Assembly (NCBI GenBank): GCA_017507905.1
Contig: JAFWAA010000061.1
Coordinates: forward strand, 404 to 64,403
Reading direction: 5' to 3'
DNA: 64,000 nucleotides
Origin: Clostridia bacterium
Lineage (GTDB): Bacteria; Bacillota; Clostridia; Oscillospirales; CAG-272
Below the pieces are notes generated by a model. It saw only the letters and a list, made by a program, of their open reading frames with translations. It ran no database searches and had not been told where the DNA came from. The translations under genes and the position numbers were made by a program. Below, piece by piece: positions 42,581 to 64,000 of the stretch (its first letter is position 1; every line of letters begins with the position of its first letter).

Positions 42581-44542
42581 TTAGCGCACTCTCTCACCCA
42601 GAGGCGTATCCTCCGCGAGGAAGACCACGCGCACGGTCTCCTCACCCGAAGCAAGGATCATACCGTTGGACTCGATGCCGCACAGCGTGGCAGGCTTGAG
42701 GTTTGCCACCACGATGATCGTTTTGCCGATCAGGTCCTCGGGAGCATACCACTTGGCAATTCCCGAGACCACCTGTCTCTGCTCATAGCCCAGATCGATC
42801 TGCAGCTTGAGCAGCTTCTTGGCCTTGGGAACCTTCTCGCAAGACAGGATCTTTGCCGTGCGAAGCTCAACGTTCATAAAGTCCTCAATGCCGATCAAGG
42901 CACAGCCCTCGGGCTTCTCCACGGGGGCGTTGGCCTTTGCCTCGGCCTCGGCAGCTGCGATCAGAGCCTTTCTCTCCTCCTCAAACTCGGCCAGCTTCTT
43001 CTCCTCGTCAATGCGGGCAAAGAGCACCTTGGAATCGCAGACCTCACGTCCTGCCTCCATGCCGTCAAAGGTGGCAAGAGAAGCAAAATCGCGGCGGTCG
43101 GTGTTCAGCTCGTCCAGGATCTCCTTGGCGGTTGCGGGAATGAAGGGCGTCAGCATGACGGCACCCTGACGGATCGCCTCCATCAAATTGTAGAGGACCG
43201 TGCCAAGGCGTTCGCGGTTGGCCTCGTCCTTTGCCAGAGTCCAGGGAGTGGTCTCGTCGATATACTTATTGGCACGGCTCAGCATCTCAAAGACGCCCTC
43301 CAGCGCGTCGGCCACGCGGTAGTCGTCCATGCAGGCAACGAGCGTGTCAAACGCCTTCCTGCAGGCAGCCTTCAGCTCGGCGTCGGTTCCCTCCTCCGCG
43401 GCGGGTGCGGGAACGATCTTGCCAAAGTACTTCTTTTCCATATCCAGCGTTCTCTTGACCAGGTTACCAAGATTGTTGACAAGGTCTGTGTTGAAGCGCT
43501 TGATGACGTTTTCGTAGGTAATGGAGCCGTCGTTTGCATAGGGCATCTCGGAGAGGGCGTAGTAGCGCACGCCGTCCACGCCAAAATGCTCTGCCAGCTT
43601 GTCGGCGTAGATCACGTTGCCGCGCGACTTGGACATCTTATCCATGCCAAAGTTGAACCACGGATGCGCGAACACCTTCTTGGGCAGGGGCAGATCCAGG
43701 GCCATGAGGAAGATGGGCCAGTAGATGGTGTGGAAGCGAATGATGTCCTTGCCGATGATGTGCACGTCGGCAGGCCAGTACTTCTTGAACTTCTCGCTCT
43801 GCTCCTCAAAGCTCTTGTCGGGATCGTAGCCGATGGCGGTGATATAGTTGGTCAGCGCGTCAAGCCAGACGTAGGTGACGTGCTTGGGATCGATCTCCAC
43901 GGGAATGCCCCAGGTAAAGGAGGTACGGGATACGCAAAGATCCTGCAGTCCTGCCTTGAGGAAGTTGTTGACGATCTCCTTCTTGCGGCTCTCGGGCTCG
44001 ATGAAGCCGGGATGCGCGTCGATATACTCCATCAGTCGGTCGGCGTATTTCTTCATGTTGAAGAAGTAGGCCTCCTCGCTTGCACGCTGGACCTCGCGTC
44101 CGCAATCGGGGCACTTGCCCTCGGCCGCCTGCGTGTCGGTGAAAAAGGACTCGCAGGGCACGCAGTACCAGCCCTCGTAGCGGCTCTTATAAATATCCCC
44201 CTGATTGTAGAAGCGGGTAAACATCTTCTTCACGGCAGCCTCGTGATAATCGTCGGTGGTGCGGATGAAGTGATCGTAATCCACGTTCATGCCGTCCCAG
44301 AGCTTGCGGATCTCCCCCGCAACGCCGTCCACGTAGGCCTTCGGCGTAACGCCCGTCTCCTTGGCCAGATCCTCGATCTTCTGTCCGTGCTCGTCCGTGC
44401 CGGTGCAGAAAAAGACGTCGTAGCCGCGTGCCTTGCGGTAGCGCGCAACGGCATCGGTCATGATCGCCTCGTAGGTGTTGCCGAAGTGCGGCTTCTTGGA
44501 CGCGTAGGCGATGGCCGTTGTCAAATAAAACTTCTCACTCAT
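42581..44542 (-). CDS. metG: methionine--tRNA ligase (with C-terminal tRNA-binding domain)
   Basis: ATG at 44542 follows GGAGG. A HIGH-type region (...PHFGNTYEAI), KMSKS and a zinc knuckle (CVPCESF...CPDCG). Confidence 0.95.
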   Translation of the reverse strand: MSEKFYLTTAIAYASKKPHFGNTYEAIMTDAVARYRKARGYDVFFCTGTDEHGQKIEDLAKETGVTPKAYVDGVAGEIRKLWDGMNVDYDHFIRTTDDYHEAAVKKMFTRFYNQGDIYKSRYEGWYCVPCESFFTDTQAAEGKCPDCGREVQRASEEAYFFNMKKYADRLMEYIDAHPGFIEPESRKKEIVNNFLKAGLQDLCVSRTSFTWGIPVEIDPKHVTYVWLDALTNYITAIGYDPDKSFEEQSEKFKKYWPADVHIIGKDIIRFHTIYWPIFLMALDLPLPKKVFAHPWFNFGMDKMSKSRGNVIYADKLAEHFGVDGVRYYALSEMPYANDGSITYENVIKRFNTDLVNNLGNLVKRTLDMEKKYFGKIVPAPAAEEGTDAELKAACRKAFDTLVACMDDYRVADALEGVFEMLSRANKYIDETTPWTLAKDEANRERLGTVLYNLMEAIRQGAVMLTPFIPATAKEILDELNTDRRDFASLATFDGMEAGREVCDSKVLFARIDEEKKLAEFEEERKALIAAAEAEAKANAPVEKPEGCALIGIEDFMNVELRTAKILSCEKVPKAKKLLKLQIDLGYEQRQVVSGIAKWYAPEDLIGKTIIVVANLKPATLCGIESNGMILASGEETVRVVFLAEDTPLGERVR

Positions 44543-44651
44543 GTTGCTCATCCTCCAATCGAACCGCGGCACGGTCAAGCCCTGACCGCGGCATATGAAG
44601 GCGCACGTGCGGACGGCAAAGCGTCGCCGCGCTTCCTTCTGATCTTTCTTT

Positions 44652-49257: not shown

Positions 49258-49290
49258 CAAAAGGTCCGATGCTTCGGGCCTTTTGTTTTT
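49258..49290 (+). terminator. rho-independent terminator of the zinc-ribbon gene
   Basis: caaaaggtccga (49258-49269) pairs with tcgggccttttg (49274-49285) with one G-U pair, followed by ttttt. Confidence 0.8.
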
Positions 49291-49310
49291 CTCCCCTTCC
49301 CTTGGGAAAA

Positions 49311-49356
49311 GCCAAAAATAAAGAGCAGACAGAAGATCTCTGTCTGCTCTTTATTT
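49311..49356 (-). terminator. rho-independent terminator of rplS
   Basis: Perfect 18-bp stem (49316-49333 / 49339-49356). A U-run follows on the minus strand. Confidence 0.85.
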
Positions 49357-49374
49357 TGAGCTCGGCGATGCCGA

Positions 49375-51941: not shown

Positions 51942-51979
51942 AGAGGACTTCTCCAAAAGGAAGAAGCCCTCTTTTTTTC
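51942..51979 (+). terminator. rho-independent terminator of the methyltransferase gene
   Basis: agaggacttc pairs with gaagccctct (one mismatch), followed by a 7-nt T-run. Confidence 0.65.
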
Positions 51980-51980
51980 T

Positions 51981-52793
51981 TTATTCTGCGATCGAAAATA
52001 CCTTCTTGGCGTTCTCGGCAAGCATCCGTCGCATATCCTCCTCGGAAAAGCCGAGCGACAAAAGGGACGCAAGCTCCTCCCTGGGATGCCACATGGGGTA
52101 GTCCGTGCCGAACAGGACGCGATCCGTGCCAAAGCGCAGGATCAGCTCCCGCACGCGCTCGGGCGGCAAAAAGCCGAAGCAGGAGGAGGAATCCACGTAA
52201 AAATTCGGTGCCCCAGCGAGCATCCGCTCCGCGTCCTCCCAGACCGACCAGCCGCCAAGGTGCGCCCCCACGACGGTAAGCCCCTCAAAGATCTCGAGAA
52301 TGGGAAGCATCCGATTGGGATTGGAAAAATCGTAGCGGCGGTCGCCCGTGTGCATCAGAATGGGCAGTCCCTCCTCCTCGCAAAGCTCGTAGATGCGCAG
52401 GAAGCGGAAATCGTCGATCTTGAAGCGCTGAATGTCGGGGTGCAGCTTGACCCCGTGCAGACCGAGGCGCACGATCCTGCGGACGTCGCCCGTAAGGTCC
52501 TCGCTCTCGGGATGAAGCGTGCCAAGACCGGTCAGGCAACCCTTTCCCTGTGCAACCTCCTCGGCAATAAACTCGTTGATGCCCGTGACCTGCTTTGGTG
52601 TGGTGGCGACCGACTGGATCACGAAATGATCCACGCCGTGCGCAAGCCCCTCCTCCATCAGATCCTGCACCGTGCCGCGGCAGACCGAGTGCAGACCGTA
52701 AAAGGTATCCGTGCCCTCTACCGCGCGCGCCGCGATCTTTTCGGGGTAAACGTGGCAGTGCGCGTCAACGACCGCATAGCCTTGGCCGACCAT
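51981..52793 (-). CDS. amidohydrolase_2 (TIM-barrel metal-dependent hydrolase/decarboxylase) family protein
   Basis: 270 aa. VVDAHCHVYP (HxH), GVKLHP, ILMHTG, GTDYPMW. The ATG overlaps the upstream stop (TGATG). Confidence 0.8.
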   Translation of the reverse strand: MVGQGYAVVDAHCHVYPEKIAARAVEGTDTFYGLHSVCRGTVQDLMEEGLAHGVDHFVIQSVATTPKQVTGINEFIAEEVAQGKGCLTGLGTLHPESEDLTGDVRRIVRLGLHGVKLHPDIQRFKIDDFRFLRIYELCEEEGLPILMHTGDRRYDFSNPNRMLPILEIFEGLTVVGAHLGGWSVWEDAERMLAGAPNFYVDSSSCFGFLPPERVRELILRFGTDRVLFGTDYPMWHPREELASLLSLGFSEEDMRRMLAENAKKVFSIAE

Positions 52794-55327
52794 CAGGCAG
52801 TCACCACGCGGCTCGCCTTGTGCAGACCGAGCTTTTCGATGGCCTCCTCACGCATCTTGTACTTGAGGATCTTGCCTGCGGCATTCATCGGGAAGCCCTC
52901 GACGAAGTCCACGTACTTCGGCACCTTGTGGCGCGCCATGTGGTCGCCGACATACTTCTTCATCTCCTCGGCCGTCATGCTCTCGCCATCCTTGAGGACG
53001 ATGCAGGCCATGATCTCCTCGCCGTACTGCTCGTCGGGCACGCCGATGACCTGCACGTCGCGGACCTTGGGATGCGTGTAGATAAACTCCTCGATCTCCT
53101 TGGGATAGATGTTCTCGCCGCCGCGAATGATCATGTCTTTGAGGCGTCCCGTAATGCGGAAGTTTCCGTCCTTGGTGCGACAGGCAAGGTCACCCGTATG
53201 GAGCCAGCCCTCAGCATCAATGGCGGCCGCGGTGGCCTCGGGCATCTTGTAGTAGCCCTTCATCAGGTTGTAGCCGCGTGCCACGAATTCACCCGTGACC
53301 TCGTCGGGGCAATCCTCTCCCGTTTCGGGATTGACGATCTTGCACTCGATCTCGGGCAGGGGACGTCCGACCGTGCCCACGCGGACCTCGATGGGATCGT
53401 CCGTGGAGCTCATGGTGCAGCCCGGGGAGGCCTCGGTCTGGCCGTAAACGATGGTGATCTCCTTCATGTTCATCTTCTCGACCACGTCCTTCATCGTGGA
53501 GATGGGACAGGGGCTTCCCGCCATGATGCCCGTGCGCATATGCGCAAAGCTGGTCTTCTCAAAATCGGGATGCTCCAGGAGCGCGATAAACATGGTGGGC
53601 ACGCCGTGGAAGGCGGTGATGTGCTCGTTGTGAATGCAGGCAAGCGCGGGCTTGGGGGAGAAATACGGCAGGGGCAGAATGGTGCCTCCGTGCGTCATGG
53701 TCGCCGTCATGGCCAGCACCATGCCAAAGCAATGGAACATGGGCACCTGGATCATCATGCGGTCCGCGGTGGAGAGATCCATGCGGTCGCCGATGCATTT
53801 TCCGTTATTGACGATATTATAGTGCGTGAGCATAACGCCCTTGGGGAATCCCGTCGTGCCCGAGGTGTACTGCATATTGCAAACGTCGTCCTTGTTGACG
53901 GCGGCGGCCATGCGGTAGACCTCACGCAGAGGAACGCGTGCGGCTCTCTCGAGTGCCTCGTTCCAATCCATGCAGCCCCTCTGACGGAAGCCGACGGTGA
54001 TGACGTTGCGCAAAAAGGGCAAACGCTTGCTGTGCAGAGGAGAGCCCGTCTTGGTCTCAGCAAGCTCGGGGCAAAGCTCGGCAATGATCTTGCCGTAATG
54101 CGTATCCTTCGAGCCCTCGGTCAAGATCAAGGTATGCGTATCCGACTGCTTGAGCAGGTACTCGGCCTCGTGGATCTTGTAGGCCGTGTTGACCGTGACC
54201 AGCACCGCGCCAAGCTTTACCGTTGCCCAGAAGGCAATATACCACTGCGGCACGTTGGAGGCCCAGACCGCCACGTGCGATCCCGCCTTGACGCCAAGAG
54301 CGATCAGCGCGCGGGCAAATTCGTCCACGTCGTCGCGGAATTCGCTATACGTGCGCGTATAATCCAGCGTCGTATACTTGAAGGCGTACTGGTCGGGAAA
54401 TTCCTCGACCATGCGGTCAAGCACCTGCGAGAAGGTCGCGTCGATGAGCGCCTCCTTCTTCCAGACGTACTTGCCCGTGTGGGCCTTGTTATAGTAAAGC
54501 GCAGGCTCCTTGCGGGAGGTGTCGCTATACTGCTTCATGTAGTTGACGAACTGGGAGAAGATGATCTCCATGTCGTCCAGCTCCTCGCACCAGCGCGGAT
54601 CCCAGACCAGGGAGAGGAAGCCGTCGTAATTGACCGAGCGGAGCGCCAGCATCATGGACTTCAGGGGCAGCTCCCCTTCTCCGACCAGGCAATACTCGAG
54701 GCCGTCCTCGGTCATGCGCGCATCGCTGACGTGCACGTGACGGACGTAAGCGCCCAGATGCTTGATGACCTGCTCGGCGCTCTCGCCGCCTCCAAAGTAA
54801 GCGGCAGACAAATTCCAGAGTGCGCCCAGAAAGTCGCAGGCAAAGCGCTCGAGAAGCGTGCGCAGCGTCTCGGCACGGCAGAACAGACCAAAGGTCTCAA
54901 TCAGCAGAGTGATCCCCTTCTCCTCGGCCACCGGCAAAAGCGTTTCCAAGAGCCCTGCGATGCGCTCGATCGCCGCGGCGTTTTTCTCCGCACTGCCGGC
55001 GTCGCTCGCCTTGAGGCGGATAAAGGGAATGTGCAGATTGGAGGCGACCTCCATGCAGGAGAGGATCTCCTGCACGTCACGCTCTCCGTCCTGTGCCTTG
55101 CCAAGATCGCAAACGGTGTCCATGCAGACCACCGTCAGCTTCTTCTCGTACAGGCGCCGCAGAGTTGCCGCGCTGGCATAGCCGTGGAAGGCGCCGTCGC
55201 GGTCGGTGAACATCGCATTATAAATATTGTGCAGCTCGATGCCCTCAAATTTCAGATCCTCGGCAACGTCGCAAAACTCCTCAAAGCTGCGTCCGTGCCA
55301 GCCCTTGGTGGAAAAGGAAAGCTTCAT
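52793..55327 (-). CDS. fusion protein: xylose-isomerase-like TIM barrel plus AMP-forming acyl-CoA synthetase/ligase
   Basis: 844 aa. The first ~280 aa match the AP-endonuclease-2 / sugar-phosphate-isomerase fold (KFEGIELH, LLIETF, VRHVHVSD, YDGFLSLVWDP). The rest is an adenylate-forming enzyme (MQYTSGTTGFPKGV, WLHTGDLA, GRLKDMIIRGGENIYP, GKILK). GGAGG RBS. The ATG overlaps the upstream stop (ATGA). Confidence 0.85.
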   Translation of the reverse strand: MKLSFSTKGWHGRSFEEFCDVAEDLKFEGIELHNIYNAMFTDRDGAFHGYASAATLRRLYEKKLTVVCMDTVCDLGKAQDGERDVQEILSCMEVASNLHIPFIRLKASDAGSAEKNAAAIERIAGLLETLLPVAEEKGITLLIETFGLFCRAETLRTLLERFACDFLGALWNLSAAYFGGGESAEQVIKHLGAYVRHVHVSDARMTEDGLEYCLVGEGELPLKSMMLALRSVNYDGFLSLVWDPRWCEELDDMEIIFSQFVNYMKQYSDTSRKEPALYYNKAHTGKYVWKKEALIDATFSQVLDRMVEEFPDQYAFKYTTLDYTRTYSEFRDDVDEFARALIALGVKAGSHVAVWASNVPQWYIAFWATVKLGAVLVTVNTAYKIHEAEYLLKQSDTHTLILTEGSKDTHYGKIIAELCPELAETKTGSPLHSKRLPFLRNVITVGFRQRGCMDWNEALERAARVPLREVYRMAAAVNKDDVCNMQYTSGTTGFPKGVMLTHYNIVNNGKCIGDRMDLSTADRMMIQVPMFHCFGMVLAMTATMTHGGTILPLPYFSPKPALACIHNEHITAFHGVPTMFIALLEHPDFEKTSFAHMRTGIMAGSPCPISTMKDVVEKMNMKEITIVYGQTEASPGCTMSSTDDPIEVRVGTVGRPLPEIECKIVNPETGEDCPDEVTGEFVARGYNLMKGYYKMPEATAAAIDAEGWLHTGDLACRTKDGNFRITGRLKDMIIRGGENIYPKEIEEFIYTHPKVRDVQVIGVPDEQYGEEIMACIVLKDGESMTAEEMKKYVGDHMARHKVPKYVDFVEGFPMNAAGKILKYKMREEAIEKLGLHKASRVVTA

Positions 55328-56706
55328 GCCTGGACCTCCTCGTAAACGATCTTATTGATCGCGTTGATGTATGCACGGATGCTTGCACCGATGATGTCGG
55401 TGGAGATCCCGTTGCCCGAATAGAGCTTGCCGTCGGCGCGGAGCTTGACCAGAGCCGATCCCATGGCCTCCTTGCCCTCGGTGACCGCCTGGATCTGGAA
55501 ATCGTCCAGCTCGTAGCGGTGTCCGACGATCTGCTCGATGGCGCGGAAGGCGGCGTCGATCGGACCGTCACCGATGGAAATCCCCTGCATGGTCTCTCCG
55601 TTCTTCTCCATCGTGATCTGTGCGGTGGAGGAGATGACGTTGCCGTTGTTGACGACGTAAGCCTTGATCTGATAGGTCGCGGGGACCTGCAGAGCCACGC
55701 TCGCGATCACGGCCTCCAGCTCCTTGGAGCCGACCTGGCGGTTGCGGCTGACGCGGCAGAACTCCTCGTAGACCTTTGCGCGGTCCTCCTCGGAGAGATC
55801 GTAGCCAAGCTGTACGGCGGCCGCATCCACGGCCTCGCGCCCGTCGTTGGCGTCCAGACGGATCTCGGCCTGCTCGGCGGCAGGAGAGAGCACGAGCTTC
55901 TCGCTCTTTGCGCCGTCAATGATCCAACGGATCTGCTTGACGTTGCGGTGCAGCTCGGTCGCGCGGACGGCCGTGCAGAGCTCGTAGGTGTTTCCGCAAT
56001 TCTTGATCATATCCACGAAGGCCTCAAGCGAGACGGCCTCGCCCAAAACCGCCGTCTTGACGCCGTCAACGCCTGCACGGACGGCCAGAGCAGCCGATGC
56101 CGCGGCCATGCCGTTCTTATCGTTGCAGCGCACGTAAACGGGAACGGAGATGCGCTTGGCGATCTCCCCTGCAAAGGCGGCAAAATCGTCGGGCATCATC
56201 TCGGCGGCACTGTCGCAAAGGGTGACCGAGGTCGCGCCCGCGCCGATAGCGGCCTGCAAAGCGGCCTCAAGCACCTCGCGCTCGGCGCGCGTGGCGTCCA
56301 CGGCGCAAAGCTCCACGTCGGGGCAGGCCTGCTTTGCCTCGGCCACGCAGGCAGCGATCCACTCGATCATCTTGGGTGCCTTCTTGTGGCAGGCATACTC
56401 CATTCCCACGGGAGAGACGGGCAGCTCGATGCGGATACGGGGATGGGCGGCACCCGAAAGCGCCGCGGCCGCCAGGGCCACGCTTCCCGCTGCCATACCT
56501 GCGCCAACCGAAAGCACGCTTCCCTTAACGAAGGAGGAAACCGTGCGCACGAGCAGGGAGTCGGTCTTGGCATTGGTGATCTCGGGGAGCTCGATGGCGT
56601 CCACGTTCAGCTTCTCCAGCTGACGGGCGATCTCGATGCGCTCCTTGAAGCTGAGGGCGCCCTCAGCGCTCAAAAGCGTTGTGTCTGCAATTCTGATCTG
56701 TTTCAT
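55324..56706 (-). CDS. 2-isopropylmalate synthase-like protein with degenerate catalytic motifs and an intact LeuA regulatory domain
   Basis: ATG at 56706 follows AAAGGAGAGG. HMGL-like barrel in which DTTLRDGEQ is DTTLLSAEG and H-x-H-D-D-L-G is VRCNDKNG. C-terminal LeuA-dimer domain (GDGPIDAAFRAIEQI...GISTDIIGASIRAYINAINK). Confidence 0.75.
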   Translation of the reverse strand: MKQIRIADTTLLSAEGALSFKERIEIARQLEKLNVDAIELPEITNAKTDSLLVRTVSSFVKGSVLSVGAGMAAGSVALAAAALSGAAHPRIRIELPVSPVGMEYACHKKAPKMIEWIAACVAEAKQACPDVELCAVDATRAEREVLEAALQAAIGAGATSVTLCDSAAEMMPDDFAAFAGEIAKRISVPVYVRCNDKNGMAAASAALAVRAGVDGVKTAVLGEAVSLEAFVDMIKNCGNTYELCTAVRATELHRNVKQIRWIIDGAKSEKLVLSPAAEQAEIRLDANDGREAVDAAAVQLGYDLSEEDRAKVYEEFCRVSRNRQVGSKELEAVIASVALQVPATYQIKAYVVNNGNVISSTAQITMEKNGETMQGISIGDGPIDAAFRAIEQIVGHRYELDDFQIQAVTEGKEAMGSALVKLRADGKLYSGNGISTDIIGASIRAYINAINKIVYEEVQA

Positions 56707-56751
56707 GTTACCTCTCCTTTTTCTGTGTTCTCGTCGGAGACGGGGAATGCC

Positions 56752-57020
56752 GAAAATAAACAAGCCCCCGGGATCGGCCAATACCGATCCCGGGGACGAA
56801 AAAACACTTTCGCGGTACCACCCCGGTTGCTGCCATAGCAGCCACCTTTTTCCGAATTCCAACAAATTCTCTGCCATGATAACGGGGCAAGCCGTAGACG
56901 CTTACTGGACTTCAGCACCTCTGCTCCGGAATGAGACTTCCCTTCTCGCTCACGCCGACTCGCACCTACCGTCGGCTCTCTGAGGTGAGGAATGAAAAGC
57001 GGAATAATTCCTTCAACGCA
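56752..57020 (-). promoter_or_regulatory. T-box riboswitch leader, specifier CUC (Leu)
   Basis: Minus strand. Stem I (57020-56922) has a K-turn UGC-GUUGA...GGA-GCA, AG bulge AGAGAG, distal loop GGUAGGUGCGA, and specifier CUC-A at 56935-56932. F-box-like CCGUUA is present. T-box core GGGGUGGUACCGCG lies at 56824-56811. The terminator is a 12-bp stem (56766-56777 / 56784-56795) followed by a U-run. Confidence 0.85.
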
Positions 57021-57043
57021 TTTACATTTGAATGATGGAAATG

Positions 57044-57072
57044 ATTATAGCACGCTTTTCCCCTTTTGTCAA
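57044..57072 (-). promoter_or_regulatory. sigma-A type promoter of the Leu T-box operon
   Basis: On the minus strand: TTGACA (57072-57067), 17-bp spacer, TATAAT (57049-57044). Confidence 0.7.
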
Positions 57073-57134: not shown

Positions 57135-57674
57135 TCAGGCCTCGTAATCCGCGCCCAGCTGCATTGCCTTGAGGTTGACCTCAAGCATATCCGCGCGCTT
57201 GGCGGAAATGACCTTCCTCAGTGCGGCCTCGACCTTTTCCACGTCGAACTGTCCAAGCTCCTTGAGGATCTTGCCCAGAAGGATCATGTTGGCAAGCGTG
57301 GGCGTGCCGTTGTCGCTCGCCATCTGCGTGGCGGGGATCTTGACCAGCTTGACGTCTTTTCTCTCGATGTCTCTTGCGATCAGCGTGGAGTCGGCAAAGA
57401 TGATGCCGCCCGGCACCACCGCAGACTCAAAGCGATCGAGGGACGGAAGGTTCATGGCCACCAGAACGTCGGGATTGGAGACGATGGGAGAGCCCACGGG
57501 CGTGTCGCTGACGATCACGCTGCAGCTCGCCGTTCCGCCGCGCATCTCGGGACCGTAGGAAGGAAGCCAGCTGACCTGCTTATCCTCGGTCAATCCCTTA
57601 TACGCCATCAGCTTTCCGACGAACAGAATGCCCTGTCCGCCAAAGCCGGAGAACAAAAACTTGGTTGTACTCAT
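57135..57674 (-). CDS. 2-oxoacid:ferredoxin oxidoreductase, gamma subunit
   Basis: 179 aa. [22 protein letters not shown]... AGGAGG RBS. The start overlaps the beta-subunit stop. Confidence 0.88.
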
Positions 57675-58426
57675 TTCTCTGCCTCCTGACTTGCCGATCT
57701 GTCCTTATAGACACCCAAGGGGTAATACGGCAGCATTTTTTCGTCGATCCACTCCAGCGCCTGCTTGGGCGTCATGCCCCAGTTGGTGGGACAGGAGGAA
57801 ACGACCTCGACCAGAGAAAAGCCCTTGCCGTCGATCTGATTCTGGAAGGCCTTCTTGATGGCCTTCTTGGCGTTCTTGACGTTCTTGACGTTATTGACGG
57901 TCACACGCTCAAGATACTCGGGGCCCTCAAGCTCGGAGAGCAGTTCGCAAACGCGAATGGGGTATCCGCAATGCTTGACGTCGCGTCCGTAGGGCGAGGT
58001 CTGCGTGACCTGGCCGGGGAGCGAGGTGGGAGCCATCTGTCCGCCCGTCATGCCGTAGATCGCATTGTTGACGAAGATGACCGTGATGTTCTCGTTGCGC
58101 GCGGCGGCGTGCACCGTCTCGGCCATACCGATGGACGCGAGGTCACCGTCACCCTGATAGGTGAAGACCACGTTCTCGGGATTGGCGCGCTTAACGCCCG
58201 TAGCGACTGCGGGAGCGCGTCCGTGCGCCGCCTCGATCATGTCGCAGTTGAAGTAATCGTAAGCCATGACCGAGCAGCCGACCGGTGCGATACCGACCGT
58301 CTTGCCCTCAATGCCAAGCTCATCCATGACCTCGGCCACCAGGCGGTGAATGATGCCGTGGGTGCAGCCGGGGCAATAATGCAGAGGAAGATCTGCCAAT
58401 GCGTTAGGCTTCTGAAAAACGATCAT
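57671..58426 (-). CDS. 2-oxoacid:ferredoxin oxidoreductase, beta (TPP-binding) subunit
   Basis: 251 aa. [10 protein letters not shown] and GDGDLASIG (TPP motif). GGAGG RBS. Confidence 0.9.
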
Positions 58427-59496
58427 TCGTTCTTACCTCCATTCTTTGCAGCCTTAAGGATCGCGTCAAGCACCTGCTCGGGGGACGGGATCATTCCGCC
58501 CACGCGATTGCACAGGGTGACGGGAACGCGGCACTCGGTGGCCAAACGAACGTCCTCGATCATCTGTCCCATGGACAGCTCTACCGAAATGACCTCCTTG
58601 ACCTGCTCTGCCGCGCGGCGGAAGGGTGCCTTCGGGAAGGGCCAAAGCGTGATGGGACGGATCATACCGACCTTAATGCCCATCGCTCTTGCCTCGTCGA
58701 TGGCGTTCTTCGATACGCGAGCGGCAATACCGAAGGCGGCAATGCAGATCTCTGCATCCTCCATGCGGTATTCCTCGTACATCGTTTCCTTCTCCTCGAT
58801 CACGCGATAGCGATCGTAGCGCTCAAAGTTGGTCTCTTCGAGCTTTTCGGGAGAGAGGAACAGAGAGTTAATCACGTTATGCGGACGCTTCATGCCCGTT
58901 CCCGTCACGGCCCAAGGCTTCTCGGGCATGGGGGTCACGGGGAGATCGTCCAGGGCCACGGGCTCCATCATCTGTCCCATGGTTCCGTCGGCCAGGATCA
59001 TGGCCGTCATGCGATAGGTATCCGCCAGAGCAAAGCCCTTTACGGTCAGCTCTGCCATCTCCTGCACCGAGGAGGGGGCAAGAACGATCATGCGGAAGTC
59101 GCCGTGTCCGCCGCCCTTGGTGGCCTGGAAATAATCCGACTGGCTGGGCTGAATGCCGCCAAGTCCCGGGCCGCCGCGCTGGACGTTGACCACAAGCGAG
59201 GGCAGGTCCGCACCGGCAAGGTAGGAAAGTCCCTCACTCTTGAGCGAAATTCCGGGGCTGGAGGAGGAGGTCATCACGCGGCGTCCTGCCGCTGCAACGC
59301 CGTAGACCATGTTAATGGCCGCGATCTCACTCTCGGCCTGCAGAAACACGCCGCCGATCTTGGGCATTCTCTTGGCCATGTAGGCCGCGATCTCGGTCTG
59401 GGGAGTAATGGGATAGCCGAAGTAGTGGCGGCAGCCTGCACGAATGGCCGCTTCCGCGATGGCTTCGTTTCCCTTCATCAAAACCTTATCTGCCAT
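58423..59496 (-). CDS. 2-oxoacid:ferredoxin oxidoreductase, alpha subunit (VorB/KorA-like)
   Basis: [36 protein letters not shown]...[17 protein letters not shown] at 59496 follows AAGGTGA (a GTG at 59505 is also possible). Confidence 0.88.
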
Positions 59497-59505
59497 ATTC
59501 TTCAC

Positions 59506-59712
59506 TCACCTTTCCACTTCAATGATGCAGTCGGGGCACATGGTCGCGCAGAAGGCGCAGCCGATGCAGGCCTCCTCGTTGGCGGCCTCCACGGGGTGGT
59601 GTCCCTTTTGGTTGATCTTGTCGGGGGACAGACGAAGGACCTGCTTGGGGCAGGCGTCAACACAAAGCCCACAGCCCTTGCATTTGTCGGTCTTAAAGGT
59701 TAATTTTGCCAT
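59506..59712 (-). CDS. 2-oxoacid:ferredoxin oxidoreductase, delta subunit (2x[4Fe-4S] ferredoxin)
   Basis: 68 aa. CKGCGLCVDACP and CIGCAFCATMCP. Confidence 0.9.
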   Translation of the reverse strand: MAKLTFKTDKCKGCGLCVDACPKQVLRLSPDKINQKGHHPVEAANEEACIGCAFCATMCPDCIIEVER

Positions 59713-59738: not shown

Positions 59739-60398
59739 TTAACAAATTTTTTCTTGCAGGTCAAGGGGGAAAAGCCCCTCGATCTGCTCCTTGAGCGTCT
59801 CGTAAAGAGATGCGCGCACGGTCGTCATGCGTACGGGAAGCCCCGATGCGCGGCTGACCTCCTCGGCGTACCGGAGGGAGGCAAGCACGTCCTCGGGAGA
59901 GGTCATCTCACCGAGATTGGAATTGTTGACCAGGCCCGTAAAGCGCATTCCGCAAGCGGTCTCGATCTCCCCAAGCACCTCAAGCGTGGAGGGGACGTCC
60001 TGCGTCAGCGGGCGGTAGCAATTGATGACCGCCAGCATTTCGTAGTTCCCTTCCTCGCGCAGTGCGGGAGAAATGCGTCCCAGCGCCAGCGCGCCGCGAT
60101 CGTCGCCGCCAACGTCGATCACCGCAGAGCGGCTCTTATCGTCCGTGATGGCGTAAAGGTCGGCCGGGAGCGCGGGAATATCCAGATTGGTGTTGGCGTA
60201 TTCCGAGCAGATCAGGCGAATGCCTGCCGCCTCCAGCTCCTTGCGGCTGTCCTTGGTTCGGAAATAGGGATTGACGATGTCCAGGTCTGCGACCGTGACC
60301 TCCTCCCCGCTCCGCCGAAGATGAAGGGCATAATTGACGGCAATATTGGTCTTGCCGCTACCGTAATGCCCGCAAAAAAGCGTTACCCGTTTTTTCAT
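59739..60398 (-). CDS. P-loop NTPase (MinD/ParA/CooC-like) of unknown role
   Basis: About 219 aa. Walker A CGHYGSGKTN, DLDIVNPYF, VIDVGGDD. Sits between the acyl-CoA synthetase and the oxidoreductase genes. Confidence 0.7.
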   Translation of the reverse strand: MKKRVTLFCGHYGSGKTNIAVNYALHLRRSGEEVTVADLDIVNPYFRTKDSRKELEAAGIRLICSEYANTNLDIPALPADLYAITDDKSRSAVIDVGGDDRGALALGRISPALREEGNYEMLAVINCYRPLTQDVPSTLEVLGEIETACGMRFTGLVNNSNLGEMTSPEDVLASLRYAEEVSRASGLPVRMTTVRASLYETLKEQIEGLFPLDLQEKIC

Positions 60399-60410
60399 AC
60401 ACAAAAAGCC

Positions 60411-62702
60411 TCAAAGCATATTGCGGCGGATCTTGCCGCTGGTGGTCTTGGGAAGCTCGTCGCGGAAGACGACCAGACGCGGATACTTGTAGGGAGCGGT
60501 ATGCTCCTTGACGTAGCGCTGGATCTCCTTCTTGAGCTCCTCGGTGGGCTCGGTGCCGGGCGTCAGAACGATGCTCGCCTTGACGATCTGTCCGCGCACC
60601 TCGTCGGGAGCGGCCGAAACGCCGCACTCGAGAACGTAAGGAAGCTCCATGATGACGCTCTCGATCTCAAAGGGACCGATGCGGTAGCCCGAGGACTTGA
60701 TGACGTCGTCCACGCGGCCGACGTACCAGTAGAAGCCGTCCTCATCGCGCCACGCGGTGTCTCCCGTATGGTAGTAGCCGTCGTGCCAAGCCTCGGCGGT
60801 CTTCTCAGGATCGTTGTAGTAGCCCACGGAAAGTCCGCAGGGATAGCCGTTTTTGAGGCTGACGACGATCTCGCCCGTCTCACCCACGGCCACGGGATTG
60901 CCCTCGGCGTCCACCAGCTCCACGTCGTAGATCGGTGCGGGCTTGCCCATCGAGCCGATCTTATGCGGCGCACCCGTCATGTTTCCGATGATCATGGTGC
61001 TCTCGGATTGACCAAAGCCCTCGAGGATCTGCAATCCCGTTGCCTTCTCGAACTGACGGTAGACCTCGGGGTTGAGTGCCTCGCCCGCCGTGGTCATGTG
61101 CTGGACCGAGGAGAAATCGTACTTGGAAATATCCTGCTTGATCATCATGCGCAGCATCGTGGGAGGTGCGCAGAAGGTGGTGATGCCGTACTTGGCAAAC
61201 ATGGGAAGGATATCCGAGGCGTCGAAGCGGTCGAAATCGTAAACGAAGGTGGCCGCCTCGCAGAGCCACTGGCCGTAGAACTTGCCCCACATGGATTTTG
61301 CCCAGCCCGTATCCGAGATGGTAAAGTGCAGGCCGTCGGGATCCACGTTGTGCCAGTATTTTGCCGTATGGAAATGTCCAAGCGGATACTTGTAGTTATG
61401 TGCGGCAATCTTGGGATAGCCCGAGGTGCCCGACGTAAAGAACATCAGCATCAGATCGTCGCCGCCCGGTGCATTCTCCGGACGCTTGTAGTGCGTGCTG
61501 TAAAGCGTGTATTCCTCGTCAAAGCTTCTCCAGCCCTCGCGCTCGCCGCCAACCAGCATCTTGTGCTTGAGGGTGGGAGAGGAGGCGGCGGCAAGCTCCA
61601 CCTGCTCTGCCACGCCGTCGTCGGCGGTGCAGATGATGGCAGAGATGCCTGCGCTCTTGAAGCGATACTCAAAATCGTGCGCCTGGAGCTGGTTGGTGGC
61701 GGGAATGCCGATGGCACCCAGCTTGTTCAGTCCGAGCATGGCGGCCCAGAACTGGTAATGCCGCTTGAGCACCAGCATCACGCGGTCGCCCTTCTTGATG
61801 CCGAGCGACTTGAAGTAGTTGGCACACTGGGCAGACATCTTCTTCATGTCCTTGAAGGTGAAGCGACGCTCGGTCTTGTCCTTGGAGACGTGCAGCATGG
61901 CCAGACGGTCAGGCTCGCGCTCGGCGAGGGCGTCGATCAGATCAAAGGCGAAGTTGAAGTTGTCGATATTCTGGAATTGGATCGAGGTAGGCGTGCCGTT
62001 CTCGTCGACCTCGGTCTTGATAAAGCGGTGATAGATGCGCTCGCGATCGTCCCTCTTGGGTGCGCGCGCAGGCTCGCGAATGGCCTTGGTGGGGGTCAAT
62101 TCGGGAATGGGCTCGCCCGTGGGATTGAGAACGATGGCGTAGAATACGCAATCCTTTCCGCCAACGGCGATCATGCCGTGCGGCGTGTCACTGTCAAAGT
62201 AGATGCTGTCACCGGGGCCCAGCACCTCGCGATGCTCGCCCACCTGCACCATCAGCTGTCCCTCCACGACGAGGTCGCATTCCTGGCCTGCGTGCGTGGT
62301 CAGCTCAATGTCCCTTTGCTGTGCCTCGGGATCATAGGTGCTGCGCACGTACAGCGGCTCGGCAATACGGTTCTGGAAGGCGTAGGCCAGGTTGTAGTAG
62401 GTCATGCCGTGCGCCTGTGCGATCTTCTGTCCCGCACCCGCACGGGTGACGGTAAAGGATTTCAGCGTCGGGCTCTGACCCTCGATGATATCGGTAACGT
62501 TGACGTTGAGCGTCATGGCGCAGCGATAGATGAACGCAAAGTTCAGATCGCTCTCGCCCGACTCACAGCGAATGTATTCGGCAACGTCCACACCCGTCTT
62601 CTGCGCCATCTCCTCGGGGGAAAGCCCCTCGATCTCGCGCAGCTCGCGGATACGCGCCGCCATTTCCCGGATCTTAAAATCCAGTCCCTTCATTTGTTCC
62701 AT
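60411..62702 (-). CDS. fusion protein: XRE-type HTH plus cupin plus medium-chain-type AMP-forming acyl-CoA synthetase
   Basis: ATG at 62702 follows AAAGGGGA. HTH (IRELREIEGLSPEEMAQKTGVDVAEYIRCESGES), cupin (GQECDLVVEGQL...GDSIYFDSDTPHG), then the ACS (FFTSGTSGYPK, YHTGDTAWRDEDGFYWYVGRVDDVIKSSGYRIGPFEIES, SGKIRR). Confidence 0.85.
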   Translation of the reverse strand: MEQMKGLDFKIREMAARIRELREIEGLSPEEMAQKTGVDVAEYIRCESGESDLNFAFIYRCAMTLNVNVTDIIEGQSPTLKSFTVTRAGAGQKIAQAHGMTYYNLAYAFQNRIAEPLYVRSTYDPEAQQRDIELTTHAGQECDLVVEGQLMVQVGEHREVLGPGDSIYFDSDTPHGMIAVGGKDCVFYAIVLNPTGEPIPELTPTKAIREPARAPKRDDRERIYHRFIKTEVDENGTPTSIQFQNIDNFNFAFDLIDALAEREPDRLAMLHVSKDKTERRFTFKDMKKMSAQCANYFKSLGIKKGDRVMLVLKRHYQFWAAMLGLNKLGAIGIPATNQLQAHDFEYRFKSAGISAIICTADDGVAEQVELAAASSPTLKHKMLVGGEREGWRSFDEEYTLYSTHYKRPENAPGGDDLMLMFFTSGTSGYPKIAAHNYKYPLGHFHTAKYWHNVDPDGLHFTISDTGWAKSMWGKFYGQWLCEAATFVYDFDRFDASDILPMFAKYGITTFCAPPTMLRMMIKQDISKYDFSSVQHMTTAGEALNPEVYRQFEKATGLQILEGFGQSESTMIIGNMTGAPHKIGSMGKPAPIYDVELVDAEGNPVAVGETGEIVVSLKNGYPCGLSVGYYNDPEKTAEAWHDGYYHTGDTAWRDEDGFYWYVGRVDDVIKSSGYRIGPFEIESVIMELPYVLECGVSAAPDEVRGQIVKASIVLTPGTEPTEELKKEIQRYVKEHTAPYKYPRLVVFRDELPKTTSGKIRRNML
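61137..61223. repeat. 87-nt block identical to 63816-63902 (inside paralogous acyl-CoA synthetase genes)
   Basis: cttgatcatcatgcgcagcatcgtgggaggtgcgcagaaggtggtgatgccgtacttggcaaacatgggaaggatatccgaggcgtc occurs in both copies. The flanking sequence is clearly diverged. Confidence 0.9.
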
Positions 62703-62747: not shown

Positions 62748-63010
62748 AAATACAAAACGCACTCGCCCCAAAGTTCGTTGCTTTGAGACGAGTGCGAAAT
62801 CACCCGCGGTACCACTCAAATTACGGCTCTCGCCGTCACTCCGGATCTGACAATCCTTATGCCTTGACGCAGCAATCACGGGAAGGTTCTACGGCCGCGA
62901 GGCTTTCTTCCTTCCGACTCGGGAGCTACAAGCAAACACCCTCTCCTATGGCTCGCACCGTCCGCCATTTCTCTGTAAGGATCCGATCAATGCCCTTCTC
63001 CGTCACCGTC
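62748..63010 (-). promoter_or_regulatory. T-box riboswitch leader, specifier GUA (Val)
   Basis: Minus strand. Stem I (63010-62916) has a K-turn GAC-GGUGA...GA-GUC, AG bulge AGAGA, distal loop GGACGGUGCGA, and specifier GUA-G at 62929-62926. T-box core GAGUGGUACCGCGGG lies at 62817-62803. The terminator stem is cgcactcg.../...cgagtgcg (62758-62796), followed by UUUUGUAUUU. Confidence 0.82.
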
Positions 63011-63028
63011 TTTCCTATGAATGAAACT

Positions 63029-63089: not shown

Positions 63090-64000
63090 TCAAAGCTTGT
63101 TTCTCTGGATCTTTCCGCTGATGGTCTTGGGAAGCTCATCGCGGAAGACGACGATACGCGGATACTTGTAAGGCGCGGTATGTTCCTTGACGTACTGCTG
63201 GATCTCCTTCTTGAGTGCCTCGGTGGGCTCGGTTCCCTTGACCAGCACGACGCTGGCCTTGACGACCTGTCCGCGCACCTCGTCGGGGGCTGCGGAGACG
63301 CCGCACTCAAGGACGTAGGGCAGCTCCATGATGACGCTCTCGATCTCAAAGGGCCCAATGCGGTAGCCCGAGGACTTGATGACGTCATCCACGCGGCCAA
63401 CGTACCAGAAGAAGCCGTCCTCGTCACGCCACGCGGTGTCGCCCGTGTGGTAGAGGCCATCATGCCATACCTCGTCGGTCTTTTCCTGATTTTTGTAGTA
63501 TCCCGCAAACAGCCCACAGGGGATCTTCTTGTCGGTGTGAATGACGATCTCGCCGACCTCACCCACGGGAACGGGGTTGCCGTCGGGATCGACCAGATCC
63601 ACGTCGTAGAAGGGCACGGGACGGCCCATCGAGCCGAGCTTGTGTGCGCCTCCCATAAGGTTGGCGATGGTAAGGGTGGTCTCGGTCTGTCCGAAGCCCT
63701 CCATGGTCTGCAGGCCCGTGGCCTCCTCAAACTTGCGGTAGACCTCGGGGTTGAGTGCCTCGCCTGCCGTGGTCATGTGACGAATGGAGGAAAGATCGTA
63801 CTTGCTGATGTCCTCCTTGATCATCATGCGCAGCATCGTGGGAGGTGCGCAGAAGGTGGTGATGCCGTACTTGGCAAACATGGGAAGGATATCCGAGGCG
63901 TCAAAGCGATCAAAGTCATAGGTAAAGACCGCACCCTCGCAGAGCCACTGGCCGTAGAGCTTGCCCCAGAGGGCCTTGCCCCAGCCCGTATCCGAGATGG
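63090..64000 (-). CDS. medium-chain-type AMP-forming acyl-CoA synthetase, paralogue (N-terminus outside window)
   Basis: The frame is open to the window edge (...ISDTGWGKALWGKLYGQWLCEGAVFTYDFDRFDASDILPMFAKYG...SGKIQRNKL). It is closely related in protein and DNA sequence to the C-terminal part of 60411-62702. Confidence 0.88.
   Translation of the reverse strand, partial: ISDTGWGKALWGKLYGQWLCEGAVFTYDFDRFDASDILPMFAKYGITTFCAPPTMLRMMIKEDISKYDLSSIRHMTTAGEALNPEVYRKFEEATGLQTMEGFGQTETTLTIANLMGGAHKLGSMGRPVPFYDVDLVDPDGNPVPVGEVGEIVIHTDKKIPCGLFAGYYKNQEKTDEVWHDGLYHTGDTAWRDEDGFFWYVGRVDDVIKSSGYRIGPFEIESVIMELPYVLECGVSAAPDEVRGQVVKASVVLVKGTEPTEALKKEIQQYVKEHTAPYKYPRIVVFRDELPKTISGKIQRNKL
63816..63902. repeat. 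87-nt block identical to 61137-61223
   Basis: See the 61137-61223 repeat entry. Confidence 0.9.

Follow-up and report, generated by a model that had tools for sequence, protein, structure and literature searches.

Rumen bacteria reportedly carboxylate isovalerate, isobutyrate and 2-methylbutyrate reductively to leucine, valine and isoleucine via 2-oxoacid:ferredoxin oxidoreductases, as is said to have been established by Allison and co-workers in the 1960s to 80s. This classical work was biochemical, and we know of no genes named in it. Exogenous branched-chain acids are activated to CoA thioesters by MbcS of Staphylococcus aureus and Macs of Methanosarcina acetivorans (PDB 3etc), and in some bacteria the gene for LeuA lies, like the gene discussed here, behind a Leu T-box. 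The set required by the rumen pathway (acid activation, ferredoxin-dependent carboxylation and transamination) is what the present locus encodes. Not part of the described pathway, however, are the T-box gating, the three dedicated ligases, the LeuA-derived partner, the TIM fusion and the amidohydrolase, and no account of such a set of genes turned up in the papers searched.

The window, i.e. the whole stretch of 64,000 nucleotides that was analysed, contains on its minus strand an operon that we tentatively read, at somewhat under an even chance, as the leucine branch of a system of three T-box-gated modules that converts branched-chain volatile fatty acids to branched-chain amino acids, with a LeuA-like protein as feedback sensor. 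Taken separately, the pathway role, salvage of isovalerate to leucine, is fairly probable, and the sensor role, suggested by sequence, is a possibility held with clear reserve. From 5' to 3', a promoter and a Leu T-box are followed by genes for a 460-aa LeuA-like protein, an 844-aa fusion of a TIM barrel with an acyl-CoA synthetase (TIM-ACS) and a 270-aa Amidohydro_2 protein, and by a hairpin:

57044..57072, minus strand: promoter-like site of the Leu operon (TTGACA, 17 nt, TG-TATAAT; 12/12 of the sigma-70 consensus with TG extension)
56789..57025, minus strand: T-box leader, RF00230 (120.4 bits against a gathering score of 93, E = 4e-26)
56764..56797, minus strand: T-box terminator hairpin (15 pairs, 11 of them G-C, then a T-rich tail), overlapping the 3' end of the T-box match
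55324..56706, minus strand: LeuA-like protein, 460 aa (HMGL-like and LeuA_dimer domains in Pfam)
52793..55327, minus strand: TIM-ACS fusion, 844 aa (AP_endonuc_2, residues 20-242; AMP-binding and AMP-binding_C, 304-819)
54473..55327, minus strand: xylose-isomerase-like TIM-barrel domain of the fusion, residues 1-285 (PF01261)
52793..54472, minus strand: acyl-CoA synthetase (ANL) domain of the fusion, residues ~286-844 (AMP-binding 315.7 bits, AMP-binding_C 70.6 bits)
51981..52793, minus strand: Amidohydro_2 (PF04909) protein, 270 aa (123.1 bits against a gathering score of 26.4)
51942..51972, minus strand: terminator-like hairpin closing the Leu operon, between convergent genes

The leader covers the full RF00230 covariance model (positions 1-219) and carries CUC, for leucine, at the specifier position (56935-56933), followed by an A (56932). 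Related Leu leaders have CUC at the same place, or CUG in three cases, and the Rfam gathering score was exceeded by the leaders of 16 of 20 short loci. With its conserved T-box sequence GGGUGGUACCGCG and a competing terminator, the leader is predicted to act as an antitermination switch, and a TTGACA...TATAAT pair is found at the equivalent place in most related leaders. Compared to known T-box riboswitches of RF00230, the RNA itself is ordinary, and the controlled genes are the unusual part. The true start of the LeuA-like gene is MKQIRIADTT with the ribosome-binding site AAAGGAGAGG ahead of it; the LeuA-like and TIM-ACS genes overlap by 4 nt (ATGA), and the TIM-ACS and amidohydrolase genes by 1 nt (TGATG), with the amidohydrolase start over the stop codon of the fusion. 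An earlier note on this DNA had described the trio as a single coupled unit that follows a Leu T-box and differs from canonical leuABCD. Both statements were confirmed, the coupling being translational, and all elements it had named lie on the minus strand where it placed them.

Related loci, all from ruminant or gut Oscillospirales metagenome-assembled genomes, showed the LeuA-like gene followed by TIM-ACS in 80 out of 80 cases, a conservation of gene order far beyond chance. The Leu operon is real and widely conserved in rumen and gut Clostridia. Among the loci seen, leuBCD was never paired with the LeuA-like gene, the partner always being the TIM-ACS fusion. A Leu T-box precedes the pair in ~73/80 loci, and in five loci ilvE directly adjoins the LeuA-like gene and no T-box separates the two; the constant linkage to a Leu T-box that the earlier note had proposed to check is thus frequent but not universal.

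Judged from its sequence, the product of the first gene is a degenerate HMGL-type TIM barrel joined to an intact LeuA_dimer regulatory domain. The two-domain fold (HMGL-like plus LeuA_dimer) and the regulatory motifs are those of LeuA, and LeuA and MAM synthase came first when the fold was searched with Foldseek. The LeuA_dimer profile (PF08502) was matched with 109.5 bits over positions 2-130 of 131, and the protein fell under every NCBIfam LeuA equivalog cut-off (TIGR00973, NF002086 and others; 256.8 versus 532 and 228.9 versus 598.7), reaching less than half of each. In contrast to LeuA, the Arg and Asp of RDGEQ and both histidines of HxH are replaced (LSAEG and RCN in the window), and ~29 residues including HSSGIHQDG in subdomain I are missing when compared to E. 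coli LeuA, both being the case in all family members examined. The positions replacing the metal ligands vary within the family (81 aligned sequences; 13 is R/K/S/N, 193 is K/R/S/Y and 195 is D/S/E/N). The absence of these LeuA catalytic residues agrees with the earlier note, which had called the protein a pseudoenzyme. In the NCBI annotation, members of the family are listed as 'hypothetical protein'.

Mean identity within the family is 79% for the regulatory domain and 61% for the barrel. Invariant in the regulatory domain are GxGPxDA, GK(D/E)A(L/M)G and GxG(I/L)(S/A)TDI, including a Gly aligned with E. coli G462, and leucine binding is predicted from this motif conservation only. Domains of citramalate synthase that are homologous to LeuA_dimer bind isoleucine. 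We propose that catalysis by condensation was probably lost and that this LeuA descendant may have been retained on account of its regulatory domain, which would bind leucine. Several positions of the former active site are conserved in the family (E94, C134, C164, D165 and N198), so that the barrel could contain a new site for a ligand and be more than a scaffold.

The loss of the LeuA catalytic motifs might also be taken to indicate a functionless, decaying remnant of a T-box-leuA operon, carried along between T-box and ACS; T-box(Leu)-leuA arrangements are indeed found in other bacteria (PMC2494555), and the 'hypothetical protein' label would suit such a gene. However, all complete copies that were examined (81 aligned) and the top database matches have an intact frame of 458-461 aa, and a dN/dS of ~0.12 implies purifying selection. 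The gene also persists in a lineage where the identity is 49%, and the high conservation and invariant motifs of the regulatory domain are hard to reconcile with decay. A decaying remnant is therefore disfavoured and appears highly improbable.

In the fusion, PF01261 was matched by the TIM domain with 79 bits against a gathering score of 31.1. A model of the domain (pLDDT 90) was closest to the isomerase Art22, to AsbF and to ketose epimerases, with TM values of 0.74-0.77 to Art22, AsbF and IolI. The Glu-Asp-His-Glu set of metal ligands that is canonical for the PF01261 family, with positions located by alignment to Art22, is incomplete in the window, where E144 and H197 are kept and D172N and E241V are found. 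The same two replacements occur in most of the 68 close fusions. Divergent members keep the Asp and the Glu and hence all four ligands, so the domain, which is under purifying selection, may be or may have been catalytic.

The best NCBIfam family for the ACS domain was PRK12583 (684 bits). The ANL core motifs that were sought (YTSGTTGFPKG, GRxKD..GGENIYP and the C-terminal catalytic Lys) are found in the translation as YTSGTTGFPKGV, GRLKDMIIRGGENIYP and AAGKILK. The domain is 77-89% identical between loci. No close characterised relative was found; the best solved structures were feruloyl-, malonyl- and fatty-acyl-CoA ligases, which match only the C-terminal two thirds. It belongs to another ANL subfamily than MbcS and Macs. 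Characterised MbcS accepts 2-methylbutyrate and isobutyrate and handles isovalerate only very poorly (PMC10026030), which would account for the use of a PRK12583-like family in the Leu module.

The LeuA-like protein and the TIM domain, itself partly degenerate, co-evolve. Their pairwise distances correlate with r = 0.85 and a partial r of 0.77 given the ACS domain, the partial r of LeuA-like versus ACS distances given TIM being 0.03, although this mirror-tree correlation is confounded in two ways, since the ACS domain evolves slowly and the recombination history is shared. Compared to one related locus (L001), the LeuA-like gene and the TIM domain form one recombination block with dS of 1.05 and 1.12, as against 0.34-0.45 for flanking genes. 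The adjacency also persists in a lineage with 43% TIM identity that has neither the amidohydrolase nor a nearby oxidoreductase. We infer from these sequence relationships that the two may be in contact and that the contact may have a regulatory effect. A comparable logic is known from histidine biosynthesis, where HisZ, a catalytically dead HisRS paralog, is the histidine-sensing regulatory subunit of the HisG(S) ATP-phosphoribosyltransferase. The resemblance would be one of analogy only, with no homology, in that a pseudoenzyme, descended from an enzyme recognising the end-product amino acid, would regulate the first committed enzyme in the supply of this amino acid; here, however, the partner would be an ANL ligase reached via a fused TIM barrel.

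Upstream of the Leu operon lie further modules on the same strand:

63090..64000, minus strand: 3' part of a further MbcS-like ACS gene (C-terminal half of AMP-binding), running off the window
63057-63029, minus strand: promoter-like site of the Val operon
62781..63015, minus strand: Val T-box leader (GUA at specifier position 62929-62927)
62796-62758, minus strand: terminator of the Val leader
60411..62702, minus strand: HTH(XRE)-cupin-ACS fusion of the Val module (HTH_3, Cupin_2, AMP-binding; start taken at MEQMKGL)
59739..60404, minus strand: P-loop (CbiA/ParA/Mrp-like) ATPase, between the Val ACS and the oxidoreductase (weak Pfam and NCBIfam matches)
57135..59712, minus strand: four-subunit 2-oxoisovalerate:ferredoxin oxidoreductase (VorB NF005507 and subunit domains)
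59506-59712, minus strand: its delta subunit (ferredoxin), 68 aa (two CxxCxxCxxxCP motifs, 2x[4Fe-4S])
58423-59505, minus strand: its alpha subunit (VorB NF005507, 543.4 bits against a cut-off of 399; POR_N/PFOR_II)
57671-58426, minus strand: its beta subunit (TPP_enzyme_C among the subunit domain matches)
57135-57674, minus strand: its gamma subunit (POR among the subunit domain matches)

The gene order in the window is thus T-box(Val), HTH-cupin-ACS, P-loop ATPase, ferredoxin and VorB-type alpha, beta and gamma subunits, and the position of the ATPase is conserved in related loci. The Val leader scored 72.9 bits with E = 2e-14, below the gathering score, the neighbouring Val and Ile leaders falling short of it with 73-86 bits, and homologous Val leaders carry GUA or GUC at the specifier. 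For the Val-module ACS, MbcS was the best NCBIfam family, with 577 bits to PDB 3etc, and the Ile-module enzyme falls into the same MbcS/Macs family by synteny. MbcS itself has neither N-terminal HTH-cupin nor TIM domains, whereas the modules here have them, together with T-box gating. By synteny, the partial ACS gene is assigned to an Ile-T-box module, the upstream ACS copy in related loci being preceded by a T-box with AUC; such an Ile-T-box ACS is added in many loci. The adjacent Val-T-box operon and the modular character of the locus, both recognised in the earlier note, were upheld, T-boxes with AUC, GUA/GUC and CUC each standing ahead of a different ACS in related loci. In 33 out of 47 loci, the cluster from Val ACS to oxidoreductase shares the strand of the Leu operon and lies at most 6 kb upstream of it, and no oxidoreductase was found within 6 kb upstream in the other 14. 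In ~34 loci, a branched-chain aminotransferase gene (Aminotran_4) separates the gamma subunit from the Leu T-box. The earlier note had left the oxidoreductase and this aminotransferase unconnected to the Leu operon.

The ACS modules might instead supply acyl-CoA primers for branched-chain fatty acids when amino acids are scarce, as MbcS does in Staphylococcus aureus, with the oxidoreductase working oxidatively. Amino-acid limitation would presumably starve primer supply too, but known T-boxes sense tRNA charging and control genes of amino-acid supply (PMC2494555), and an oxidative oxidoreductase with an aminotransferase would waste valine under valine starvation. For these two enzymes behind a Val-starvation switch, the biosynthetic direction would be the only sensible one. 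A leucine-binding domain would also be hard to rationalise in primer supply, and isovaleryl-CoA could serve both outputs side by side. We consider a dedicated primer function improbable.

The third gene was matched to Amidohydro_2 and has the motifs DAHCH, KLHP, MHTG and GTDYP, with H12, H14, H148, H178 and D231 at least 90% conserved among 55 sequences. It fits no characterised subfamily, the nearest structure being the uncharacterised BB4693 (PDB 3irs). It follows the LeuA-like/TIM-ACS pair in ~51/61 loci and is absent from ~10/61 operons with room for it; it is also missing from the divergent L088/L089 version of the operon, and a 68%-identical ortholog sits in an unrelated context. Since it follows the pair in only part of the loci and occurs elsewhere, we propose that it is probably an active but accessory enzyme. 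Conservation of the trio thus held in full for the first two genes and in part for the third. The idea of the earlier note that amidohydrolase_2 could be a (de)carboxylase at the core of the pathway was not supported, this being the least tightly linked gene, and the upstream 2-oxoisovalerate:ferredoxin oxidoreductase is a far more plausible candidate for the carboxylation.

A simple salvage pathway needs neither the TIM barrel nor the amidohydrolase, which leaves two of four domains unexplained. Alternatively, and in line with the earlier note, all three proteins could be catalysts in a novel route of several steps that leads to leucine or to its keto acid, in which the ACS activates a precursor that is transformed by the TIM domain, the LeuA-like barrel and the amidohydrolase, acting as hydrolase or reversible decarboxylase. 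Such a route would give work to all the parts that simple salvage leaves unaccounted for, the LeuA-like barrel included, and would agree with the catalytic HxH, His and Asp residues of the amidohydrolase, the full E-D-H-E set of divergent TIM domains, the newly conserved barrel positions and the purifying selection on LeuA-like protein and TIM domain. It is nevertheless unlikely, as the amidohydrolase is dispensable, TIM domains of the window clade miss two of four ligands, the replaced metal-ligand positions of the LeuA-like protein vary freely and a complete and sufficient carboxylation and transamination set lies next door.

In the salvage pathway that we prefer, uncharged tRNA-Leu would let the CUC T-box permit transcription, and the ACS domain of the 844-aa protein would convert isovalerate, ATP and CoA to isovaleryl-CoA. 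The oxidoreductase just upstream would form 4-methyl-2-oxopentanoate by reductive carboxylation and the branched-chain aminotransferase would yield leucine; both the use of isovalerate by this ACS and the direction of the oxidoreductase are what we infer. The LeuA-like protein would dock on the degenerate TIM barrel of the fusion and place the first committed salvage step under feedback by free leucine. All three T-box-gated modules together would activate 2-methylbutyrate, isobutyrate and isovalerate for isoleucine, valine and leucine, respectively. Somewhat doubtful, as the most far-reaching form of this proposal, is that a LeuA-derived leucine-sensing subunit sits on the TIM adaptor of an isovalerate-CoA ligase under double control by tRNA-Leu charging and leucine allostery, and that the Ile/Val/Leu triad comprises the genes behind the isoacid requirement. 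If true, this would provide the genetic basis, missing for so long, of the need of fibre-degrading Clostridia in the rumen for isoacids.

The Leu operon of the window was found to be a single transcription unit, and the earlier note, which had described it from the sequence alone, was correct in all particulars. Promoter, T-box, three genes, overlaps and end hairpin were located as follows.

51942–57072, minus strand: Leu transcription unit, a single unit
57072–57044, minus strand: sigma-70-type promoter, 12/12 consensus, with a TG extension
56789–57025, minus strand: Leu T-box leader (RF00230, full-length, 120.4 bits versus a gathering score of 93, E = 4e-26)
56935–56932, minus strand: specifier CUC, a leucine codon, with the following A, at the specifier position of the RF00230 model
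56797–56764, minus strand: terminator of the Leu leader, a 15-pair hairpin with T-tail
55324–56706, minus strand: LeuA-like gene, 460 aa, HMGL-like and LeuA_dimer domains
52793–55327, minus strand: TIM-ACS gene, 844 aa, AP_endonuc_2, AMP-binding and AMP-binding_C domains
51981–52793, minus strand: amidohydrolase gene, 270 aa, Amidohydro_2 domain

The LeuA-like gene starts with the ATG at 56706 (MKQIRIADTT), which is preceded by AAAGGAGAGG; a longer open reading frame (55324–56877) begins within the T-box leader and is not the real start of this gene. The genes overlap by ATGA and then by TGATG, and a hairpin between convergent genes closes the operon.

Directly upstream on the same strand lies a second operon, and no terminator was found between the two. 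Its oxidoreductase context had been left unused in the earlier note. It begins with the following features.

63057–63029, minus strand: promoter of the Val operon
62781–63015, minus strand: Val T-box leader with GUA at the specifier position (72.9 bits, E = 2e-14, below the gathering score)
60411–62702, minus strand: HTH(XRE)-cupin-ACS fusion of the Val module
59739–60404, minus strand: P-loop ATPase with weak CbiA/ParA/Mrp-like matches

The ATPase is followed by a 68-aa two-cluster ferredoxin and by the alpha, beta and gamma subunits of a 2-oxoacid:ferredoxin oxidoreductase, of which alpha passes the curated VorB model (543 versus a cut-off of 399). The ATPase is conserved in this position, after the Val ligase and ahead of the ferredoxin subunit, and may serve the oxidoreductase as an Fe-S or assembly factor. 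At the edge, the window ends inside another ACS gene of the same type as the Val-module ligase.

The remaining genes of the window are chromosomal housekeeping genes (PolA, DnaE, MurB, WhiA, RF1, ParC/GyrA, EF-G, MetRS, homoserine dehydrogenase and DpaA), and no ilv, leu or tRNA genes were found in the 64 kb. One T-box above and one below the gathering score are present, both in the branched-chain locus; the methionyl-tRNA synthetase gene (42581–44578, minus strand) has none at the Rfam gathering score. Matches to miRNA, rimP and fluoride-riboswitch families were discarded as chance hits on terminator hairpins or coding sequence. At 49263–49362, where a zinc-finger gene and rplS converge, two strong hairpins followed by T-runs are ordinary terminators for both directions; the spurious microRNA and rimP matches of the Rfam scan by E-value arose from them.

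A scan of one genome per species identified at least 500 genomes encoding a relative of the LeuA-like protein. The best 80 loci, all from Oscillospirales MAGs (Acutalibacteraceae, Oscillospiraceae and Ruminococcus) of ruminant or other guts, were compared, with synteny counted by tblastn. A check raised in the earlier note was whether the three genes are conserved together and always linked to a Leu T-box. This held for the first two genes, as TIM-ACS follows the LeuA-like gene after 0–38 nt in 80/80 loci, but less strictly for the amidohydrolase, which comes immediately next in about 51 of the 61 loci with room for it, and for the T-box core, which in 73/80 precedes the LeuA-like gene by 70–290 nt. 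A lineage with 43% TIM-domain identity keeps the T-box(CUC), the LeuA-like gene and TIM-ACS, with no amidohydrolase or oxidoreductase nearby, and a 68%-identical amidohydrolase ortholog follows an Fe-ADH gene in an unrelated setting. From the synteny of the related loci, the conserved core is therefore T-box(Leu), LeuA-like gene and TIM-ACS, and the amidohydrolase is accessory. Downstream of it, no genes are conserved across related loci. Upstream, the oxidoreductase cluster lies within 6 kb on the same strand in 33/47 loci, and about 34 loci have a branched-chain aminotransferase (Aminotran_4) placed after the gamma subunit and ahead of the Leu leader.

Specifiers were read by direct inspection of Stem I segments together with Rfam alignments. 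In the Leu leaders of related loci the specifier is CUC, with CUG in three, and the Rfam gathering score was reached by 16 of 20 short loci, the other four being cut by a contig end or having ilvE abutting the LeuA-like gene. Many loci carry two more T-boxes ahead of two HTH-cupin-ACS paralogs, the first with AUC (Ile) and the second with GUA or GUC (Val), an order confirmed by Rfam alignments of the related locus L008. The Val and Ile leaders (window 62781–63015; L008 1–237 and 2613–2861) score 73–86 bits against the gathering score of 93, with E-values of 1e-14 to 1e-18, and would be overlooked by default annotation. In the related loci L002, L003, L015, L017 and L077 the aminotransferase gene abuts the LeuA-like gene without a Leu T-box, and their Leu module appears to be read from the Val-T-box operon. 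In the leader of L006, another related locus, a promoter-like site is present, and neither a T-box core nor an AGAGA element could be identified.

The amidohydrolase had been suggested as a possible (de)carboxylase within the pathway. It retains the HxH, His and Asp residues, and in a PDB sequence search its best match and only close structure was the uncharacterised BB4693; neither this search nor that of the TIM domain gave a functional lead. A carboxylase role as core step was rejected because of the loose linkage, so this part of the earlier note was not borne out. A true multi-enzyme pathway, with the operon's proteins acting as successive enzymes, is a rival reading on which the state of the LeuA-like protein also bears.

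This protein belongs to a large family (458–461 aa), and all NCBI-named proteins among the top 120 matches are MAG proteins labelled 'hypothetical protein' by PGAP. Its predicted fold matches LeuA in the structure model, and its score is less than half of every LeuA equivalog cut-off. Compared with LeuA from Listeria, Neisseria and E. coli, RDGEQ is replaced by LSAEG and HxH by RCN, and about 29 residues including HSSGIHQDG are absent. The former catalytic positions vary freely across 81 family members, as expected from sequence if catalysis has been lost. Mean identity in the family is 79% in the C-terminal domain versus 61% in the barrel. The C-terminal domain retains GxGPxDA, GK(D/E)A(L/M)G and GxG(I/L)(S/A)TDI, including the Gly that aligns with E. 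coli G462 (position verified by alignment). Substitution of G462 relieves leucine feedback in E. coli LeuA. A functionless relic would be a further explanation for the degraded active site; a dN/dS of 0.12 against the nearest relative and the conserved reading frame speak against it, and a decaying pseudogene was rejected on these grounds. Residue 12 is Leu in the window and Cys in 75/81 family members, and Cys134, Cys164 and Cys194 are also highly conserved.

A confident structure model of the TIM domain (pLDDT 90) shows a xylose-isomerase-like barrel. Its nearest structures are the isomerase Art22, AsbF and ketose 3-epimerases, and Art22 was also the best match in the PDB sequence search (E = 9e-9). 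In the window's clade, N and V occupy two of the four canonical metal-ligand positions, and more divergent TIM domains retain all ligands (LWD..HH, SLEW). Two subtypes are thereby seen (for example on comparing P0495, P0505 and P0243 with the window), ligand-complete and the N/V type of the window's clade; in three sequences Lys replaces the first Glu (LLIKTSG). The ACS domain carries all ANL core motifs, is the most conserved part (77–89% identity across loci) and is nearest to the uncharacterised PRK12583 subfamily.

Standalone TIM-barrel relatives (26–32% identity) were traced in two genomes. In Anaerotruncus colihominis (locus L084, 4253–8816), the TIM relative has a standalone ACS two genes away, with a PASTA Ser/Thr kinase in between. 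This ACS shares 55% identity with the ACS domain of the window, and together the two may represent an unfused counterpart of the pair. Neither a LeuA-like gene nor a T-box was found there; the 445-aa protein encoded next to them is not LeuA-like (E = 1.7), and a sub-threshold 'Leu_leader' match is probably a mere terminator. In the second genome the context is unrelated.

A link between the LeuA-like protein and the TIM domain is suggested by comparison with the closest relative, L001. dS is 0.34–0.45 for oxidoreductase gamma, the ACS domain and the amidohydrolase, and 1.05–1.12 for the LeuA-like gene and the TIM domain. The latter two form a mosaic block (54604–56703) with 67–82% DNA identity, surrounded by VOR gamma, ACS domain and amidohydrolase at about 90–99%. 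The breakpoint falls near the TIM/ACS domain junction, which means that the LeuA-like gene and TIM domain were exchanged as one block. Pairwise distances of the LeuA-like protein and the TIM domain, taken over 52 loci, correlate with r = 0.85 (partial r given ACS = 0.77), and LeuA-like and ACS distances, given TIM, with a partial r of 0.03. These sequence distances suggest co-adaptation of the LeuA-like protein and the TIM domain, the correlation being confounded by evolutionary-rate differences and shared recombination.

The simplest account of the whole locus is reductive carboxylation of branched-chain volatile fatty acids to branched-chain amino acids. Three dedicated ligases would share one oxidoreductase and one aminotransferase, each ligase being gated by a T-box for its own end product. 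MbcS, a characterised relative, takes 2-methylbutyrate and isobutyrate and isovalerate only very poorly (PMC10026030), which would explain why the Leu module's ligase comes from another subfamily. Alternatively, the ligases might supply primers for fatty-acid synthesis; the biosynthetic direction is favoured by the location of oxidoreductase and aminotransferase downstream of a switch that responds to valine starvation. Within the proposed amino acid route, the LeuA-like protein would be a LeuA relic that owes its retention to its leucine sensor and regulates the ligase via the fused TIM barrel. By analogy, its regulatory role may resemble that of HisZ, and we infer the mechanistic part. The Val and Ile ligases (window 60411–62702; L008 310–2541 and 2919–5201) carry N-terminal HTH(XRE) and cupin domains on an MbcS/Macs-like ACS. 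DNA-binding modules of this type typically respond to small molecules, and the fusion of one to an enzyme suggests that these ligases have a BirA-like dual role as enzyme and transcription regulator, on top of the T-box.

A full-text literature search (reductive carboxylation, T-box, ACS, oxidoreductase) retrieved no description of this cluster, nor of the T-box-gated ligase triad, the LeuA-derived partner, the TIM-ACS fusion or the HTH-cupin-ACS fusions, and a T-box survey from 2008 names neither CoA ligases nor oxidoreductases (PMC2494555). RNA, ligase chemistry and pathway are all of known kinds. For fibre-degrading bacteria of the rumen, branched-chain volatile fatty acids ('isoacids') are growth factors, and they are also given as feed additives. 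The conversion of isovalerate to leucine was worked out biochemically decades ago, and no description of its genes or regulation was found in the full-text search. For this old physiological observation the locus supplies a defined set of genes that can be tested: three T-box-gated ligases with one oxidoreductase of the ferredoxin type and one aminotransferase, found in at least 500 species-level genomes. It also offers a new candidate regulatory pseudoenzyme. Prediction of amino-acid auxotrophy from gut and rumen MAGs would change, because isoacids may still allow genomes without ilv and leu genes to produce these amino acids. A LeuA relic with only its sensor domain kept, tied to TIM-ACS, would add a new case to the pseudoenzymes that have taken on regulatory roles.
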